Below are positions 2,296-56,121 of a DNA stretch of 64,000 nucleotides, in pieces. The notes below the pieces were generated by a model, which was given only the letters and a program-made list of their open reading frames with translations, did not search any database and was not told the origin of the DNA. The stretch lies in the NCBI GenBank assembly GCA_023139205.1, contig JAGLOA010000001.1, positions 906 through 64,905 of the forward strand. The letters are read 5' to 3'. The translations under genes were made by a program, and so were the position numbers. The number at the start of each line of letters is the position of its first letter. Within the stretch, counting starts at the first letter, position 1. This stretch comes from Candidatus Pacearchaeota archaeon (GTDB lineage: Archaea > Nanobdellota > Nanobdellia > Pacearchaeales > GW2011-AR1).

Positions 2296-2998
2296 AATGC
2301 TGGAAATCTACAATCCAGAACAAGATTCTTTTCTTTTATCAAAAGTTCTTTTAAAACAAATCCCAAAACTTTTGAAGAAAAATAAAAATTTAACTTTTTT
2401 GGAAATAGGATGTGGAAGTGGAATTCAGCTTCAAACAGCTTTAGAATTAGGAATAAAAAAACAAAATATTTTTTCCTGTGATATAAATCCAAAAGCAGTA
2501 AAACATTGCAAGAAACTTAGATTTCATTGTGTAAAGTCAGATTTATTTGAAAAAATTGGTGATAGGGGGTATCAGTCGGAGGCAATGAAAAGATACCTCC
2601 CTTCCACGCTTCGAGGAAGGAGCGAGGTTATCGAGTTGCGAGAAAAATCGCGAAATCGACAACGTCAACTCGGTGGCCGAGTTGGGAGGAAAATCAAGGG
2701 GTTTCCTCGCAAATATAATTTAATTATTTTTAATCCTCCTTATTTGCCTGAAGATAAAAGAGAGCCAAAAAATTCTTGTTTAGCAACAACAGGAGGAAAA
2801 AAAGGAAATGAAATTATCTTAAGATTTTTAAAACAAGCAAAAAAATATCTTGAAGAAGATGGGAAAATTTTTCTTATAACTTCTTCTCTTTCAGAAAAAA
2901 TTGATTTTGAAAAGTTGGGATACAAGGAAAAAGAAATTGGATGCGAGAAATTATTTTTTGAAAGGTTGTGTGTTTGGGAGATAAAATTATTTAAATGA
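2270..2998 (+). CDS. HemK/Mtq2-family protein N5-glutamine methyltransferase carrying an in-frame 150-nt GC-rich insertion
   Basis: Motif I LEIGCGSGIQ and catalytic NPPY (LIIFNPPYLP). Canonical spacing SDLFEKIG..KYNLIIFNPPY is interrupted by a 50-aa hydrophilic insert (DRGYQSEAMKRYLPSTLRGRSEVIELREKSRNRQRQLGGRVGRKIKGFPR) encoded by the GC-rich element at 2561-2710. Confidence 0.7.
   Translation: MIFLINLFKMLEIYNPEQDSFLLSKVLLKQIPKLLKKNKNLTFLEIGCGSGIQLQTALELGIKKQNIFSCDINPKAVKHCKKLRFHCVKSDLFEKIGDRGYQSEAMKRYLPSTLRGRSEVIELREKSRNRQRQLGGRVGRKIKGFPRKYNLIIFNPPYLPEDKREPKNSCLATTGGKKGNEIILRFLKQAKKYLEEDGKIFLITSSLSEKIDFEKLGYKEKEIGCEKLFFERLCVWEIKLFK
2561..2710 (+). repeat. GC-rich hairpin element, copy A (family with 8398-8480 and 17656-17759), inserted in frame in the methyltransferase CDS
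   Basis: Stem GGGGGUAUC/GAUACCUCC enclosing loop with invariant UCGGAGGCAAU; also shares GAGGAAAATCAAGGGGTT with copy C; exactly 150 nt (3n), no stop. Confidence 0.6.
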
Positions 2999-8276: not shown

Positions 8277-8397
8277 ATTTATACTAAATCACAATCAATT
8301 TTATATATTCTCCTATTTTTTCAGGGTTATAAACTTTTTTAAAAAAATGATAAAATTTACCCCCTTAAATAATTTAGAATATAATCAAAAATTTTTG

Positions 8398-8480
8398 TGC
8401 GATTTTCATCGGAGGCAATTTAAAAAATCGCCCATCCGCAAAGAAAGGGAAAATCGAAAAAAACCGCGAGGTTGTTTTCA
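8398..8480 (+). promoter_or_regulatory. GC-rich hairpin element, copy B, ending exactly at the mre11 ATG
   Basis: GCGAUUUU/AAAAUCGC 8-bp stem around loop CAUCGGAGGCAAUUUAA; then AAAATCGAAAAAAACCGCGAGGTTGTTTTCA immediately before ATG 8481; near-identical to copy C. Confidence 0.55.
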
Positions 8481-17553: not shown

Positions 17554-17655
17554 ATTTTTTAAAACCTTTAAAAACTCTTTTTACTTTTCTTAATTATGTT
17601 AAATAAAGAGGTTTCTCATGTGGTATCCTTCAAAAATTCGAGGAATGACCAAGTA

Positions 17656-17759
17656 GAGGAAAATCAAGGGGTTGTCTTATGCGATTTCGTCGGAGGCAAT
17701 TGGAAATCGCCGTTCCACAATTTGAGGAAAATCGAAAAAAACCCGCGGGTTGTTTTCAA
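17656..17759 (+). promoter_or_regulatory. GC-rich hairpin element, copy C, ending at the ATG (17760) of the presenilin-like gene
   Basis: GAGGAAAATCAAGGGGTT module, then GCGAUUUC/GAAAUCGC stem with loop GUCGGAGGCAAUUG, then AAAATCGAAAAAAACCCGCGGGTTGTTTTCAA ATG; the stem differs from copy B by a compensatory C-G to U-A change. Confidence 0.55.
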
Positions 17760-18749
17760 ATGAAACACAATGTAAAAATAATAATAATTCTTTTATCCAT
17801 GTTTGTTATAACCCAGTTTATTGGGTTGGCTGTTTTGCAGGCAGATATTTTTCATATTGAAAAAGAAATCAACGGAACAATGCAAGAAGTTGCAAATCCT
17901 TATTTGTCTTGGATTCAACCCCCGGAAATGCAAACAAATACAGAATTTTTTACACTCTTTCCTAGTTTAATAATTGCGTTTGTTTTTGCAATTTTTTTGG
18001 TTTTTATCCTTAGTAAATTTAAACTGGAATTTTTCTTAAAATTATGGTTTTTTGTTGTAGTTTGTATTGCTTTATTTTTAGCACTTTATTCATTTGAAAA
18101 ATTAGCATTTTTTAATGTCGAATCTCTTTGGATATTAGCAATACCAATAATAATTGCTCTTCCTTTAGCTTTTATTAAAATTTATAAAAGAAATTTTTTA
18201 ATTCATAATCTTACAGAGTTATTTATCTATCCTGGAATTTCAACGGTTTTTATCCCTATTTTGAATTTTTGGACAATAATTGCTCTTTTGATTATAATCT
18301 CAATTTATGATATGTGGGCTGTTTGGCATTCTGGTTTTATGCAAAAAATGGCTAAATACCAAATAAACAAATTAAAAATCTTTTCTGGATTTTTTGTTCC
18401 TTATTTATCAAAAAAAGTTAAACAAGAATTAAAGAAAAATAAAAAATCAAAAAAGAAAAGTGTTAAAGCAAATGTAGCTATTTTAGGAGGAGGGGACGTA
18501 ATTTTCCCGATTATTACTGCAGGAGTTATATTTTTTACTAAAGTAGTACCTCTTCCTTTTGGATTGAAACCTTTTGTAGGAGGGCTTTTTCCGGCCTTAT
18601 TTGTAATTGGAGGGGCAACATTAGGTTTAGGTTATTTGTTTTTCTTCTCTGAAAAAAAGAAGTTTTACCCTGCAATGCCTTTTATTACAGCTGGAATCTT
18701 TTTAGGGATTTTAGTAAGTTATGTTTTAAGATATTTTAGTGTTCTTTAA
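17760..18749 (+). CDS. presenilin / signal-peptide-peptidase family (A22) intramembrane aspartyl protease homologue
   Basis: Multi-TM protein with YD (ISIYDMWAV), GxGD (AILGGGDVIF) and PAL (LFPALFV) motifs in the correct order. The track start at 17679 lies inside repeat element C and is probably artefactual. Confidence 0.6.
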   Translation: MKHNVKIIIILLSMFVITQFIGLAVLQADIFHIEKEINGTMQEVANPYLSWIQPPEMQTNTEFFTLFPSLIIAFVFAIFLVFILSKFKLEFFLKLWFFVVVCIALFLALYSFEKLAFFNVESLWILAIPIIIALPLAFIKIYKRNFLIHNLTELFIYPGISTVFIPILNFWTIIALLIIISIYDMWAVWHSGFMQKMAKYQINKLKIFSGFFVPYLSKKVKQELKKNKKSKKKSVKANVAILGGGDVIFPIITAGVIFFTKVVPLPFGLKPFVGGLFPALFVIGGATLGLGYLFFFSEKKKFYPAMPFITAGIFLGILVSYVLRYFSVL

Positions 18750-49799: not shown

Positions 49800-51560
49800 A
49801 TGAATATGAAAAAGAAAGGGGTTTATTTTATTTTAGGATTTATTTTATTGGTAGTAAGTATTTTTACTATTAATGCAGTTGTAGATAAAGATAAAGCCTG
49901 GCATAATTCTAGTGAAATTTTAGTTACAATCGAAGGTTATACAATGACTTTGGAGGAAGCAATAACTAATAATGTTTTCATTGATGGAGCAATAGAATCA
50001 TATACCTCAGAAATTCCAAATCCAGGTCATAGTGCAGAAGAAGTTTGGATTTCAGTTGATGGCGATGAAAAAACTTTGCAAACTGCTATAGACGAATTAT
50101 CAACCTCAGATAGTCTTTGCAGAGCTGGTGAATTATTATGTAAACCAATTTGTAATTTTGTAGGAACTTTCAAGGAATGTTGGTATGATCCTTGTGCAAA
50201 AGAATGTATCGGGGGTTTGTGTGAGGGTAATAAAGCTATTTGTGAAGAAATAGGATTCCCTGAAGAAGGTTGGTATAGTTCTCGTAAAGGAGAACTTATT
50301 CTTCTTGGAAATTGTGCTTACGAATCTTCAGATCCAAGCAAGGTAGATAAAAGCCAGTTTGCAAATGAAATTGAAGTTTCATCAGGCATAAGTTTACAAG
50401 ATTCTATTGATTCTGGAGATTTTTGTTGTGTACCAGATTGTGTTGATAAACCCTTTCAACCAGATGGTTGTGGAGGAATTTGTGAATGTAATTGGTTAGT
50501 TTCTAAACCATCTACTGTTTTTGAATTTGAGGCTAATCATGGATCATGCAACTCACTCCAAAAAATAGACGCTACCCATTATTTAAACACTTATCTGGGT
50601 GCTGATTATGATGGATATGCTGTTGTTTTAGAAGTAAACCCAACTGACTGGTCAATTTCTAAACCTTCTACTGCTTTTGAATTTGATACTTCTCGTGGAT
50701 CATGGAACTCACTCCAAAAAATAGACGCTACCCATTATTTAAACACTTATCAGGGTGCTGATTATGATGGATATGCTGTTGTTTTAGAAGTAAACCCAAC
50801 TGACTGGTCAATTTCTAAACCTTCTACTGCTTTTGAATTTGATACTTATTATGGGATATGGAACTCACTCCAAAAAATAGACGCTACCCATTATTTAAAC
50901 ACTTATCAGGGCAATGGTGAAGATGGATATGCTGTTGTTTTAGAAGTAAATCCAACTGACTGGTCAATTTCTAAACCTTCTACTGTTTTTGAATTTGATG
51001 TTTATAACGGTCTATACAACTCACTCCAAAAAATAGACGCTACCCATTATTTAAACACTTATCAGGGCAATGGTGAAGATGGATATGCTGTTGTTTTAGA
51101 AGTAAATCCAACTGACTGGTCAATTTCTAAACCATCTACTGTTTTTGAATTTGATACTTCTCAGGGAGCATGGAACGCACTCCAAAAAATAGACGCTACC
51201 CATTATTTAAACACTTATCGGGGTGCTGATTATGGTGGTCATGCTGTTGTTTTAGAAGTAAATCCAACTGACTGGTCAATTTCTAAACCATCTACTGTTT
51301 TTGAATTTGATGCTAATTATGGTGATTACAACGCACTCCAAAAAATAGACGCTACCCATTATTTAAACATTTATTCTCCTTTTGGTGGTCATGCTGTTGT
51401 TTTAGAAGTAAATCCAACTGACTGGTCAATTTCTAAACCATCTACTGTTTTTGAATCGGATGTTATGATTTATAACTCACTCCAACAAATAGACATCACT
51501 CATTATTTAAACACTTATTATGGGGGTAAGGGTTATGCTGTTGTTTTAGAAATAACTTAA
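49800..51560 (+). CDS. pilin-like/secreted repeat protein (class III signal-like N-terminus + 7 tandem 52-aa repeats)
   Basis: MNMKKKGVYFILGFILLVVSIF then VDKDKAWH; C-terminal half is WSISKPSTVFEFD..NSLQKIDATHYLNTYQG..GYAVVLEVNPTD repeated about 7 times. Confidence 0.5.
   Translation: MNMKKKGVYFILGFILLVVSIFTINAVVDKDKAWHNSSEILVTIEGYTMTLEEAITNNVFIDGAIESYTSEIPNPGHSAEEVWISVDGDEKTLQTAIDELSTSDSLCRAGELLCKPICNFVGTFKECWYDPCAKECIGGLCEGNKAICEEIGFPEEGWYSSRKGELILLGNCAYESSDPSKVDKSQFANEIEVSSGISLQDSIDSGDFCCVPDCVDKPFQPDGCGGICECNWLVSKPSTVFEFEANHGSCNSLQKIDATHYLNTYLGADYDGYAVVLEVNPTDWSISKPSTAFEFDTSRGSWNSLQKIDATHYLNTYQGADYDGYAVVLEVNPTDWSISKPSTAFEFDTYYGIWNSLQKIDATHYLNTYQGNGEDGYAVVLEVNPTDWSISKPSTVFEFDVYNGLYNSLQKIDATHYLNTYQGNGEDGYAVVLEVNPTDWSISKPSTVFEFDTSQGAWNALQKIDATHYLNTYRGADYGGHAVVLEVNPTDWSISKPSTVFEFDANYGDYNALQKIDATHYLNIYSPFGGHAVVLEVNPTDWSISKPSTVFESDVMIYNSLQQIDITHYLNTYYGGKGYAVVLEIT
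50492..51556 (+). repeat. tandem coding repeat, 156-bp unit x about 6.8 copies
   Basis: Near-identical 156-nt units (e.g. 50648-50803 vs 50804-50959); last units are 150 nt and partial. Confidence 0.8.
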
Positions 51561-55793: not shown

Positions 55794-55828
55794 AATAAGT
55801 TTATTAAACTTTTTATAATAAGATCAGT

Positions 55829-56087
55829 GTAGACTCAGAGGGTTGCTCTTAGATAATTAAAAAGCTACCTTTATTTTTCCTCGGTTCTGCGACCTGTCAA
55901 GCATCTTAACAAATGTTTAGGGCTGCTCCGATCAAGGTCTGACCCAGTTCGCATATGCAAGATCAAAACAGACAAAACGTCAACGTCCAAACAAAGACTT
56001 TTCAACGCACTAATCACGCCCCTCCTTGCAGTCTGCCATAAAGCCCGTTTGCAAAAGGCAGAGGGCTAACCTGCCAACCTAGTCTAC
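55829..56087 (-). ncRNA. candidate signal recognition particle (7S/SRP) RNA
   Basis: About 260-nt GC-enriched ORF-free island. On the minus strand, 5' GUAGACU pairs with 3' AGUCUAC (terminal helix). 5'-domain hairpins GGCAG-GUUAGCCCU-CUGCC and UUGCA-AACGGGCUUUAUGGCAGAC-UGCAA have complementary loops (AGCCC/GGGCU, Alu-domain-like). The apical hairpin GGGUCAGACC-UUGAUC-GGAGCAGCCC resembles the helix-8 SRP54-binding consensus GGUCAG..AGCAGCC. Confidence 0.5.
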
Positions 56088-56121
56088 AAAAAAGATAGAA
56101 ATAAAGAGTTTTTAAGCTTAA

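Follow-up and report, generated by a model that had tools for sequence, protein, structure and literature searches.

GC-rich hairpins that spread in a very AT-rich genome, between genes and within coding sequence, are known from yeast mitochondria as GC clusters or byp elements; the byp elements, which are organellar, are skipped by the ribosome. Rickettsia palindromic elements (RPEs) are hairpin repeats of about 100-150 nt found in one lineage with small, AT-rich genomes, where they lie between genes and, strikingly often, in frame within unrelated protein genes that are still functional (PMC10969869). Correia, ERIC, BOX and RUP elements are small structured repeats located just upstream of bacterial genes, with which they are co-transcribed and whose expression they change; BOX is also modular (A-B-C) and nesting (PMC10969869). 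In Caldiarchaeum, tRNA fragments lie beside an integrated element (PMC3293823).

Here we describe a family of small, modular, GC-rich repeats in the tiny genomes of Pacearchaeota- and Woesearchaeota-type DPANN that apparently has not been described before. DPANN account for much of the diversity of archaea and, to our knowledge, their non-coding DNA is almost unannotated. The copies designated A, B, C1 and C2 lie in the window, by which we mean the whole stretch of 64,000 nucleotides analyzed, from a Candidatus Pacearchaeota archaeon. Taken as a whole, the observations are probably explained by a dispersed, lineage-restricted family that spreads by copy-and-paste, has a leader role at B and C2, and is translated at A.

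Like RPEs, the family occurs in frame in proteins, at two sites in the Mtq2 methyltransferase, in a second methyltransferase and in an 883-codon ORF. The family here is archaeal and apparently unrelated to RPEs in sequence. This counterpart to the in-frame repeats of Rickettsia suggests a repeated tolerance of such elements in the proteins of small AT-rich genomes. Unlike RPEs, the archaeal repeats favor gene starts and tRNA 5' ends, enter tRNA introns and covary as RNA. They resemble BOX in being modular and nesting. Correia elements have terminal inverted repeats, a TA duplication and their own promoters, whereas the family described here has no such repeats, its predicted promoters are upstream of the element, and what it probably contributes, in a leaderless genome, is a Shine-Dalgarno sequence.

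The basic unit is about 80 nt long and consists of a hairpin, hp1, followed by a small middle hairpin and then by a third, hp2. The 8-bp stem of hp1 encloses a near-invariant loop, UCGGAGGCAAU; hp2 has 10-12 bp, a conserved A.G mismatch and a 3' arm containing GGUG, and its module (~40 nt) is also found on its own. Alternative 5' modules, nested insertions and tandem copies occur. Further copies and structural covariation were both sought and both found, in other DPANN genomes and in metagenomes. A strict hp1 pattern has 61 matches, all of them in DPANN, in 37 assemblies with at most 7 per assembly. The hp2 pattern identifies at least 120 metagenome loci, and the covariance model yields 86 and 32 significant matches in loci. 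In viral contigs there are 0 matches to the hp2 pattern, and 13 matches to a shorter hp1 pattern were rejected as chance matches in phage genes. No Rfam family matches at its gathering score or at E <= 1.

In the window, the motif TCGGAGGCAAT occurs exactly three times, at 2576, 8409 and 17690, always on the + strand and always in a hairpin loop, in agreement with the preliminary description. With one mismatch allowed there are 4 matches against 0.40 expected, a count reached by 0 of 100 shuffles. The stems that had been described as complementary but differing pair as given: GGGGGTATC (2565-2573) with GATACCTCC (2592-2600) in copy A, GCGATTTT (8399-8406) with AAAATCGC (8424-8431) in copy B, and GCGATTTC (17681-17688) with GAAATCGC (17703-17710) in copy C; across the family, covariation indicates selection for paired stems. 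When built from unrelated copies, a covariance model picks out exactly three sites in the window, C2 (88.1 bits), B (77.4 bits) and A (21.8 bits). Flanking duplications were looked for at the window copies, and none was significant.

Copies B (8397-8479, + strand, with hp1 at 8399-8431 and hp2 at 8456-8479) and C2 (17679-17757, + strand, with hp1 at 17681-17710 and hp2 at 17734-17757) are complete short forms. Copy C was initially taken for one element, but is really a tandem pair in which C2 is adjoined by a fourth, degenerate copy, C1 (17618-17678, + strand), a decayed A-type copy with the hp1 loop and 3' arm deleted. Similarly, copy A (2561-2710, + strand) does comprise 150 nt in frame, but rather than a plain copy it is a composite of an A-type unit of ~90 nt and a 60-nt expansion. 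Its hp1 (2565-2600, + strand) pairs GGGGGUAUC with GAUACCUCC and carries the loop motif at 2576-2586; the internal expansion (2625-2684, + strand) forms two additional hairpins; and the 3' module, an A-type hp2 (2686-2710, + strand), is a GAGGAAA/UUUCCUC hairpin ending in CCUCGC. The GC island at 2556-2718 is more than 160 nt long and among the richest of the window, with at most 0.56 GC per 50 nt in a window that is 28.6% GC.

Compensatory changes preserve the pairing of both main stems. In copies picked through hp2, hp1 is 98% paired and has double changes at 6 of 8 pairs, and in copies picked through hp1, hp2 has double changes at 10 of 10 pairs; slid controls are 39-63% paired. The covariation score, computed on alignments fitted to the model, is reached by 0 of 500 shuffles, and by no more than 1 of 500 on any measure. 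At interior pairs, G.U (27) is far above A.C (5), a bias suggesting that the sense RNA is under selection. From a MAFFT alignment RNAalifold recovered hp1 only, because of register shifts, and a hand-specified structure with model-based alignment took its place. A C/D-box or K-turn reading of the hp1 loop was discarded, as inspection revealed no conserved box motifs.

An ORF-opening ATG lies within 4 nt of the hp2 end in 58 of 170 copies (34%) compared to 2.2% of random positions (p ~ 1e-51), in a set of loci picked via conserved patterns in which copy classes are unevenly sampled. Based on N-terminal sequences, the genes downstream of many copies include those for ribosomal proteins, SRP54, SMC, RFC and Mre11/Rad50. 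Twelve copies have the hp2 end flush with the +1 position of a tRNA. Inverted copies adjoin stop codons or tRNA 5' splice sites, and the canonical 37/38 introns of tRNA-Lys, tRNA-Gly and tRNA-Asn hold inverted copies 1-3 nt past the 5' splice site. In-frame copies occur in at least three unrelated protein families; in the second methyltransferase (L024, L094 and L110) they precede FDVIVMPRPQ, and the 883-codon ORF that spans a copy (L049) is taken, on sequence alone, to encode a family-B DNA polymerase. These placements affect gene calling, through spurious N-terminal extensions, small ORFs and inflated protein lengths, and lead to tRNAs being missed owing to ~100-nt introns.

Exact target duplications flank 12 of 141 copies (9%) and 0 of 141 controls. 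Their lengths span 12 nt to 40 nt or more, one being 51 bp; one has a palindromic filler (CTGGCT/AGCCAG), others run from the tRNA T-loop to CC, and one (L109) reaches upstream of the tRNA start. The base just 5' of the element is always a pyrimidine. Copies inside 37/38 introns, and copies flanked by duplicated tRNA fragments, recall archaeal tRNA introns and the disruption of tRNA genes by mobile elements. Unlike bulge-helix-bulge (BHB) introns, however, the element makes no splice motif itself, is ~40-150 nt long without a recombinase, and has no BHB in its Mtq2 copy.

Copy B ends at 8479, 1 nt short of the mre11 ATG (8481), and copy C2 at 17757, 2 nt short of the ATG (17760) of a presenilin/SPP-family gene. 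We infer that both are element-derived leaders that supply a predicted Shine-Dalgarno sequence. According to the TATA matrix, from which alone transcription starts are predicted, the TATA begins at -29 in 40% of the ORFs in the window and in 31% of the 727 ORFs of the loci; before tRNAs, it is at -30/-31. Our proposal is that these genomes would transcribe most genes leaderless, and that an element landing at a gene start would make a leaderless gene leadered. Transcripts would then begin at a promoter that lies upstream of the element, and the GGUG/GAGGU of the hp2 3' arm, ~8 nt 5' of the AUG, would serve as Shine-Dalgarno. The SD-like GAGGU of copy B is at 8468-8472, and the match in C2 is weak (GGGU). 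The mre11 element is present in the window and absent in two other loci (L002 and L004); in L002, the region upstream of the mre11 orthologue has no element and has TATA at the leaderless position.

B and C had been proposed as leader or promoter modules. Leaders abutting start codons are what we see, but promoters are predicted upstream of elements and none inside. The BRE/TATA and start predicted upstream of C1 (17559-17598, + strand; BRE/TATA 17559-17576, PWM 11.3 bits) place the start at 17596, which is an orphan ATG. From it a 55-codon ORF crosses C1 and C2 and ends at a TGA overlapping the real ATG of the gene at 17760. For copy B, the best promoter match (8292) may be that of the divergent gene. 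An upstream ORF through the element, as seen for B and C, was rejected as a selected feature because ATG-flush copies (22 of 41) show no enrichment for it over others (34 of 69). A promoter inside the element was also rejected: the TATA matrix scores low within it, and the TTTAAAAA of some hp1 3' arms varies among variants. Likewise, predicted starts show no peak consistent with an ancestral promoter fixed at -29 from the element 5' end, and lie 6-100 nt upstream.

The hp2 loop triplet yields RGRGGUG in 16 of 34 ATG-flush copies versus 1 of 79 others (Fisher p = 3e-9), an enrichment of which part is a subfamily effect stemming from the common descent of the copies. The hp2 loop may evolve towards a perfect Shine-Dalgarno only where the element precedes a start codon. 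The family offers a natural experiment in translation initiation, in which one portable sequence makes leaderless genes leadered. Shine-Dalgarno spacing cannot account for the sites at which the hp2 end is flush with tRNAs.

A copy-and-paste process would join the hp2 end precisely to the target and leave the other end variable. Of the copies that lack the 5' part, 70 of 108 break at model positions 40-49, a module boundary, and this clustering led us to reject random 5' truncation. A mode of spread outside the standard classes is suggested by the placement of junctions at transcript boundaries, by the long duplications of variable length and by the lack of terminal repeats. The family could be a MITE from a DNA transposon, either IS200/IS605-type and palindrome-associated or rolling-circle, moved in trans by a transposase encoded elsewhere. 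Copies are small, non-coding and numerous, as expected for MITEs, and hairpins near both ends without long terminal repeats are reminiscent of single-strand transposon derivatives. The constant pyrimidine directly 5' of the element is a further point in favor. Counter to this, there are neither consistent terminal inverted repeats nor a fixed short target duplication. Nothing at the 3' end (GGTTGTTTTC or GGTGTCCTCGC) consistently complements the (Y)GCGATTT of the 5' end; the match between them is at most 5 nt (GCGA/TCGC), in one subtype only, and the majority of copies show no duplication. Nor are there the similar end hairpins and conserved 5' target of IS200/IS605: hp1 and hp2 are unrelated in sequence and differ in loop, and only the -1 pyrimidine is constant. 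No longer, transposase-carrying relative turned up in ~1.2 Mb of fetched DNA. We consider this origin unlikely.

Alternatively, the family could be a SINE-like retroposon, in which a reverse transcriptase starts on, or jumps to, hp2 of the element RNA, so that the hp2 end is fused to ends of cellular nucleic acids, such as 5' ends of transcripts or ends of tRNA fragments, with variable target duplications left behind. As in SINEs, the 3' junction is precise, some copies are without their 5' part, a stem-loop lies at the 3' end, and target duplications, present in 9% of copies, vary in length. The element is joined precisely at hp2 and variably at its other end, the junctions match predicted transcript ends in a leaderless genome, and selection acts on the sense-strand RNA structure. 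The direct duplications of 12-51 bp, the palindromic filler and the T-loop-to-CC spans also fit. Unlike in SINEs there is no A-rich tail, and the lost 5' parts cluster at one module boundary instead of forming a continuum. Furthermore, an operon-internal copy at rad50 (L004) is flush with an ATG where transcripts probably do not begin, and the L109 duplication reaches upstream of the tRNA start. We think this process quite unlikely. Diversity-generating retroelement reverse transcriptases are the main reverse transcriptase type in DPANN (PMC8632793). Correspondingly doubtful is a non-autonomous archaeal retroelement whose RNA, recognized through hp2, is copied by a reverse transcriptase (perhaps of this type) and fused to RNA ends or nicks at transcript boundaries. 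If true, it would account for hp2 ends at leaderless starts, tRNA +1 positions, 5' splice sites and tRNA fragment ends, as well as for the variable duplications with palindromic fillers, and prokaryotes would gain their first described family of SINE-like retroposons.

Spread by copy-and-paste, whatever its machinery, contrasts with the possibility that the repeats are a dedicated cis-regulatory leader RNA before a housekeeping regulon, not mobile, with the odd copies incidental. The covarying stems, the near-invariant loop, the sense-strand G.U excess and the many copies before ribosomal-protein, SRP54, SMC, RFC and Mre11/Rad50 genes are compatible with such a role. However, copies are also inverted, in tRNA introns, before tRNAs, past stop codons and in frame in proteins, orthologous sites differ in presence (as at mre11), target duplications and tandem and nested copies exist, and Rfam holds no matching family. 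Rather than a constant 5' UTR position before functionally related genes, we find both orientations and several contexts. The earlier suggestion of a pure cis-regulatory RNA family is too narrow, and we regard a dedicated leader RNA as very unlikely.

Copy A occupies residues ~89-138 of the HemK2/Mtq2-type methyltransferase gene (2297-2998), where the 150 nt, or 50 aa, that it adds separate SDLFEKI from KYNLIIFNPPY. Among the 120 best homologues, most are 179-187 aa long and without the insert, which bears out the in-frame insertion of the preliminary description. Its lineage specificity is not upheld by the orthologue comparison: in at least nine other Pacearchaeota alleles a related insert occupies the same codon position, with one allele having it at a second site. 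All ten insert alleles, with two sites and one nested 57-nt insertion, are open and in frame, and each of at least five independent length changes is a multiple of three without a stop codon. Such strict conservation of frame argues against removal and for ordinary translation, unlike the case of byp elements.

It is extremely improbable that copy A is an archaeal BHB-type mRNA intron cut by tRNA splicing endonuclease and sealed by a ligase to yield a protein without the 50 residues, for although the family is truly present inside genuine BHB tRNA introns and the insert combines high GC content with strong structure (z = -4.2), in those introns it is not the element that builds the BHB but the tRNA together with a unique tail at the 3' end of the intron, a scan that recovers 4 of 5 tRNA-intron controls finds no conserved motif at the junctions of seven orthologous Mtq2 inserts, the best window candidate (2565-2712) would excise 148 nt and shift the frame, the fold of 2521-2750 has no exon-exon helix, and the insert length changes all preserve an open frame.

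The AlphaFold model of Mtq2 has a confident methyltransferase core (blocks 84-94) and an insert with pLDDT 40-55, placed between strands 77-80 and 140-145 (beta3/beta4). As in the earlier view, copy A is probably a repeat tolerated in frame at this place. We suggest that it would be an old composite copy whose transcript is translated to give a disordered excursion of ~50 aa from beta3 to beta4. At the Mtq2 site, some lineages have an A-type hp1 and others a standard hp1, giving mosaic copies. The A-type hp1 of copy A is also found in three other loci (L003, L023 and L039), and the short A-type copies of L039 and L003 are without the 60-nt expansion. The hp2 of copy A is 96% identical over 25-26 nt to positions 5337-5362 of L039, where the module is flush with an ATG.

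The GC-rich hairpin copies A, B and C belong to a widespread, lineage-restricted and modular repeat family that is under structural selection at the RNA level, meets gene boundaries with a precise junction at its 3' hairpin, and is tolerated in introns and proteins. Its unit of ~80 nt has two main hairpins, hp1 on the 5' side and hp2 on the 3' side, with a small middle hairpin between them. In the window, which an exact protein match assigns to a Candidatus Pacearchaeota archaeon and whose GC content is 28.6%, TCGGAGGCAAT has three exact occurrences, at 2576, 8409 and 17690, always on the + strand; with one mismatch there are 4 matches against 0.40 expected, a number reached in 0 of 100 shuffles. 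Each occurrence is a hairpin loop whose stem differs in sequence among copies while pairing is kept, just as the preliminary description had it. Copy A (2561-2710, + strand) lies inside the gene for a HemK2/Mtq2-type methyltransferase (Mtq2, 2297-2998), is among the window's most GC-rich stretches (up to 0.56 in 50 nt, more than 160 nt long) and folds into five hairpins in series (z = -4.2 on the + strand, -4.9 on the - strand). It combines a ~90-nt unit of a variant form, here called A-type, with a 60-nt internal expansion (2625-2684); the short A-type form is present in locus L039, flush with the ATG at its end, and in the L003 Mtq2. Copies B and C, both on the + strand, sit at start codons as had been claimed: B ends at 8479, 1 nt ahead of the ATG of an Mre11-type phosphoesterase with Rad50 next, and C ends at 17757, 2 nt ahead of the ATG of a presenilin/SPP-family protein. 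The three copies are real, but the count was incomplete: alignment resolves C into two tandem copies, C1 (17618-17678, + strand), a decayed A-type copy without the hp1 loop and 3' arm and thus a fourth copy, and C2, which is complete. Nine unrelated copies were used to build a covariance model, which matches these sites alone in the window (88.1, 77.4 and 21.8 bits; next match E = 0.11), and no significant flanking duplications were found at the window copies.

A wider search for the hairpin found further copies. Across prokaryotes, sampled at one genome per species, a strict hp1 pattern matched 61 times, in 37 assemblies (maximum 7 in one assembly) that all bear the label Pacearchaeota, Woesearchaeota, Nanoarchaeota or unclassified archaeon. 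In metagenomes, the pattern of one hp2 subtype matched at least 120 loci, and pattern scans of viral contigs gave no real copy. Rfam returned no match at gathering score or at E <= 1, and we found no description of this hairpin repeat family in the literature; a 2024 review of prokaryotic MITEs draws its archaeal examples from Sulfolobus, haloarchaea and Desulfurococcus only and leaves DPANN unmentioned (PMC10969869).

The hp1 hairpin is exemplified by the stem GCGAUUUC/GAAAUCGC with loop UCGGAGGCAAU, and hp2 by GAAAAAAACC NNN GGUUGUUUUC and GCGAAGGAAACC NNN GGUGUCCUCGC; the middle hairpin is short, variable and CCCUU...AGGG-like. hp1 is optional, being absent from about half of the copies selected via hp2, and in 70 of 108 copies without it the break falls at the same module boundary. 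There is also an alternative 5' module (AAUCAGCCUUGAGC...), and extra hairpins are nested in the hp1 loop at L004 9240-9378 and L159. Covariation samples were cross-selected, such that the stem under test played no part in ascertainment. In these alignments, which were fitted to the model and hold copies related by descent, hp1, in copies selected via hp2, had 98% of cells paired and two-sided changes at 6 of 8 pairs (GC to AU, UA to CG), and hp2, in copies selected via hp1, had double changes at 10 of 10 pairs. The covariation score was matched by 0 of 500 shuffles, and no measure by more than 1 of 500; slid-register controls reached only 39-63% pairing. The earlier argument that the stems are under selection for pairing is therefore borne out in both hairpins. 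An A.G mismatch within hp2 is conserved too, in 48 of 85 sequences. At interior pairs, 27 G.U against 5 A.C point to selection on RNA of the hp1-to-hp2 strand and not on a DNA cruciform. This structural selection would be in keeping with the suggestion of a structured cis-regulatory RNA family, but a purely cis-regulatory reading is too narrow for repeats that are also found inverted, in tRNA introns, within ORFs and between target duplications, and they match no curated RNA family.

The genomes carrying the family are of the leaderless type, in which transcripts of most genes would start at the ATG. A near-perfect TATA octamer (TTTATAAA-like) begins at precisely -29 relative to the ATG for 40% of window ORFs (for example, upstream of those at 1410, 21682, 23166, 26278 and 32329) and for 31% of 727 ORFs across all loci, and an 18-nt matrix for the archaeal BRE/TATA promoter box peaks at a single position. 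Shine-Dalgarno-like motifs occur in 14 of 58 window upstream regions; by eye, the genes concerned are mostly close behind another gene. The box of tRNA genes lies at -30/-31, so that their leaders would measure 1-2 nt; taken together, a copy flush with an ATG or with tRNA position +1 is flush with the transcript start. The ATG of an ORF of at least 60 codons lies within 4 nt of the hp2 end in 58 of 170 distinct copies (34%), compared with 2.2% of random positions (p ~ 1e-51). On inspection of N-terminal sequences, the genes downstream of these ATG-flush copies are mostly housekeeping genes, including those for ribosomal proteins L10e, L11, S10 and L24e, SRP54, SMC, RFC and Mre11/Rad50. Twelve copies share a strand with a tRNA and stop between -1 and +6 nt from its position +1.

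Where an element stands in front of a gene, the box at -29 is missing and strong boxes lie upstream of the element; the element thus appears to give a leader to a gene that would otherwise be leaderless. In 11 of 18 type-I copies, transcription is predicted to begin at an orphan ATG; in the C region of the window, the box at 17559 (11.3 bits) places the predicted start on an ATG, at 17596. Copy B has an ambiguous promoter, and the mre11 gene of L002, which has no element, carries a TATA at the leaderless position. The hp2 loop triplet adjoins GGUG, and an RGR triplet yields RGRGGUG, the complement of the 16S 3' end as found in L043. RGR is present in 16 of 34 ATG-flush copies versus 1 of 79 others (p = 3e-9), an enrichment that supports a Shine-Dalgarno role for the hp2 loop region. 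Copy B has GAGGU 8 nt ahead of the ATG; C2 has GGGU only. B and C2 are probably 5' leaders that derive from the element and provide the ribosome-binding site. Of the original proposal of leader or promoter modules, we infer that the leader part holds, whereas predicted promoter boxes lie upstream of the elements instead. Upstream ORFs run through B and through C1 + C2 and end at the real ATG or slightly beyond it; ATG-flush copies show no enrichment of such ORFs, and we thus draw no claim from them. A 69-nt hp2-type copy between an upstream gene and rad50 (L004 17574-17645) holds a 23-codon ORF (MKISHEHKFSGKIKRKKPEVSAQ) whose two ends both overlap the neighboring genes in a stop/start ATGA, and this mini-ORF also precedes other genes in L096, L102, L120 and L083.

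Inverted copies lie in the canonical 37/38 introns of tRNA-Lys, Gly and Asn, starting 1-3 nt past the 5' splice site; the bulge-helix-bulge (BHB) of these introns is built by a unique ~20-nt 3' intron tail, not by the element. Others directly follow stop codons (L028, L035 and L058) or the 16S 3' end (L043). ARAGORN found no tRNA gene anywhere in the 64-kb window; in related loci, its default run missed many tRNAs with ~100-nt element-containing introns.

Of 141 copies, 12 lie between exact direct repeats of the target, which measure from 12 nt to at least 40 nt; a displaced control gave 0 of 141. At L109 556-707, the 5' end and promoter region of a tRNA are cleanly duplicated as 51-bp direct repeats on either side of a 50-nt insert made of a 13-nt filler and an hp2 module, the first 6 bases of the filler (AGCCAG) being the reverse complement of the target's last 6 nt (CTGGCT). 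At L182, a tRNA is duplicated from T-loop to CC. An RNA-mediated mode of spread fits several features of the junctions, but the modular break points and the operon-internal copies make it less likely. In its working, the family is closest to the Rickettsia palindromic elements, through in-frame copies, and to Correia/BOX-type repeats, which are likewise modular, co-transcribed and upstream of genes. A MITE-like element, as had been suggested, fails on both defining tests, terminal inverted repeats and fixed target duplication. At L136 13194-13363, two tandem repeats of a unit (element plus duplicated tRNA 3' end) adjoin a tRNA gene, which suggests array growth through unequal exchange. Three assemblies (L026, L053 and L023) share an inverted copy ahead of a gene starting MITYNDIYEAA, with the gene's first ~34 nt duplicated beyond the copy; the duplicate has diverged in L023.

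Copy A is an in-frame insertion, as first described: it adds 50 residues to Mtq2 between SDLFEKI and KYNLIIFNPPY, and most of the best 120 homologues measure 179-187 aa and do not have this segment. Its supposed lineage specificity does not hold, for at least nine other Pacearchaeota Mtq2 alleles carry a related insert. All ten Mtq2 alleles counted with an element have open ORFs. Site 1 is occupied in the window, L001, L002, L003, L004, L006, L008, L080, L098 and L159, and a second site, ~10 codons upstream, in L183. Six of the insert loci came from DNA patterns, so intact frames were not favored by ascertainment. At least five independent changes of insert length are all multiples of three, and, in a recent change, L159 carries in its hp1 loop a nested insertion of 57 nt that its close relative L098 does not have. 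A full-length type-I element, checked by hand, has no stop-free frame other than the one used in Mtq2, and across copies usually one or two frames are open; as a consequence, independent in-frame copies share one frame, for example in a second methyltransferase. An AlphaFold model has a confident methyltransferase core, with the insert at low confidence between strands 77-80 and 140-145. Copy A is thus probably translated. The proposal that it is a BHB intron is very unlikely, as a BHB scan found nothing conserved at the Mtq2 junctions although it recovered 4 of 5 tRNA-intron controls. At site 1, hp1 is A-type in the window and L003 and standard in L001 (the closest relative) and others, which implies that copies swap modules or that insertion at the site was repeated. 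By inspection, the in-frame copy of the second methyltransferase lies just ahead of FDVIVMPRPQ (L024, L094 and L110), another lies in an 883-codon ORF that is family-B DNA polymerase-like near the element (L049; also L046 and L070), and a copy in L054 lies ahead of an FVIQEH... segment similar to the LigD phosphoesterase.

Elsewhere in the window, a GC-rich non-coding stretch at 55827-56089 (- strand) is the archaeal SRP RNA (75.4 bits, E 5e-15), with the helix-8 region of the model largely deleted; this score is below the Rfam gathering score of 96.5, and a default scan therefore misses it. A 156-nt (52-aa) unit is repeated in tandem six to seven times at 50337-51523, within the ORF at 49800-51560. 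The units are 82-92% identical, and this arrangement suggests that the 586-aa ORF encodes a repeat-domain protein, probably a surface protein.
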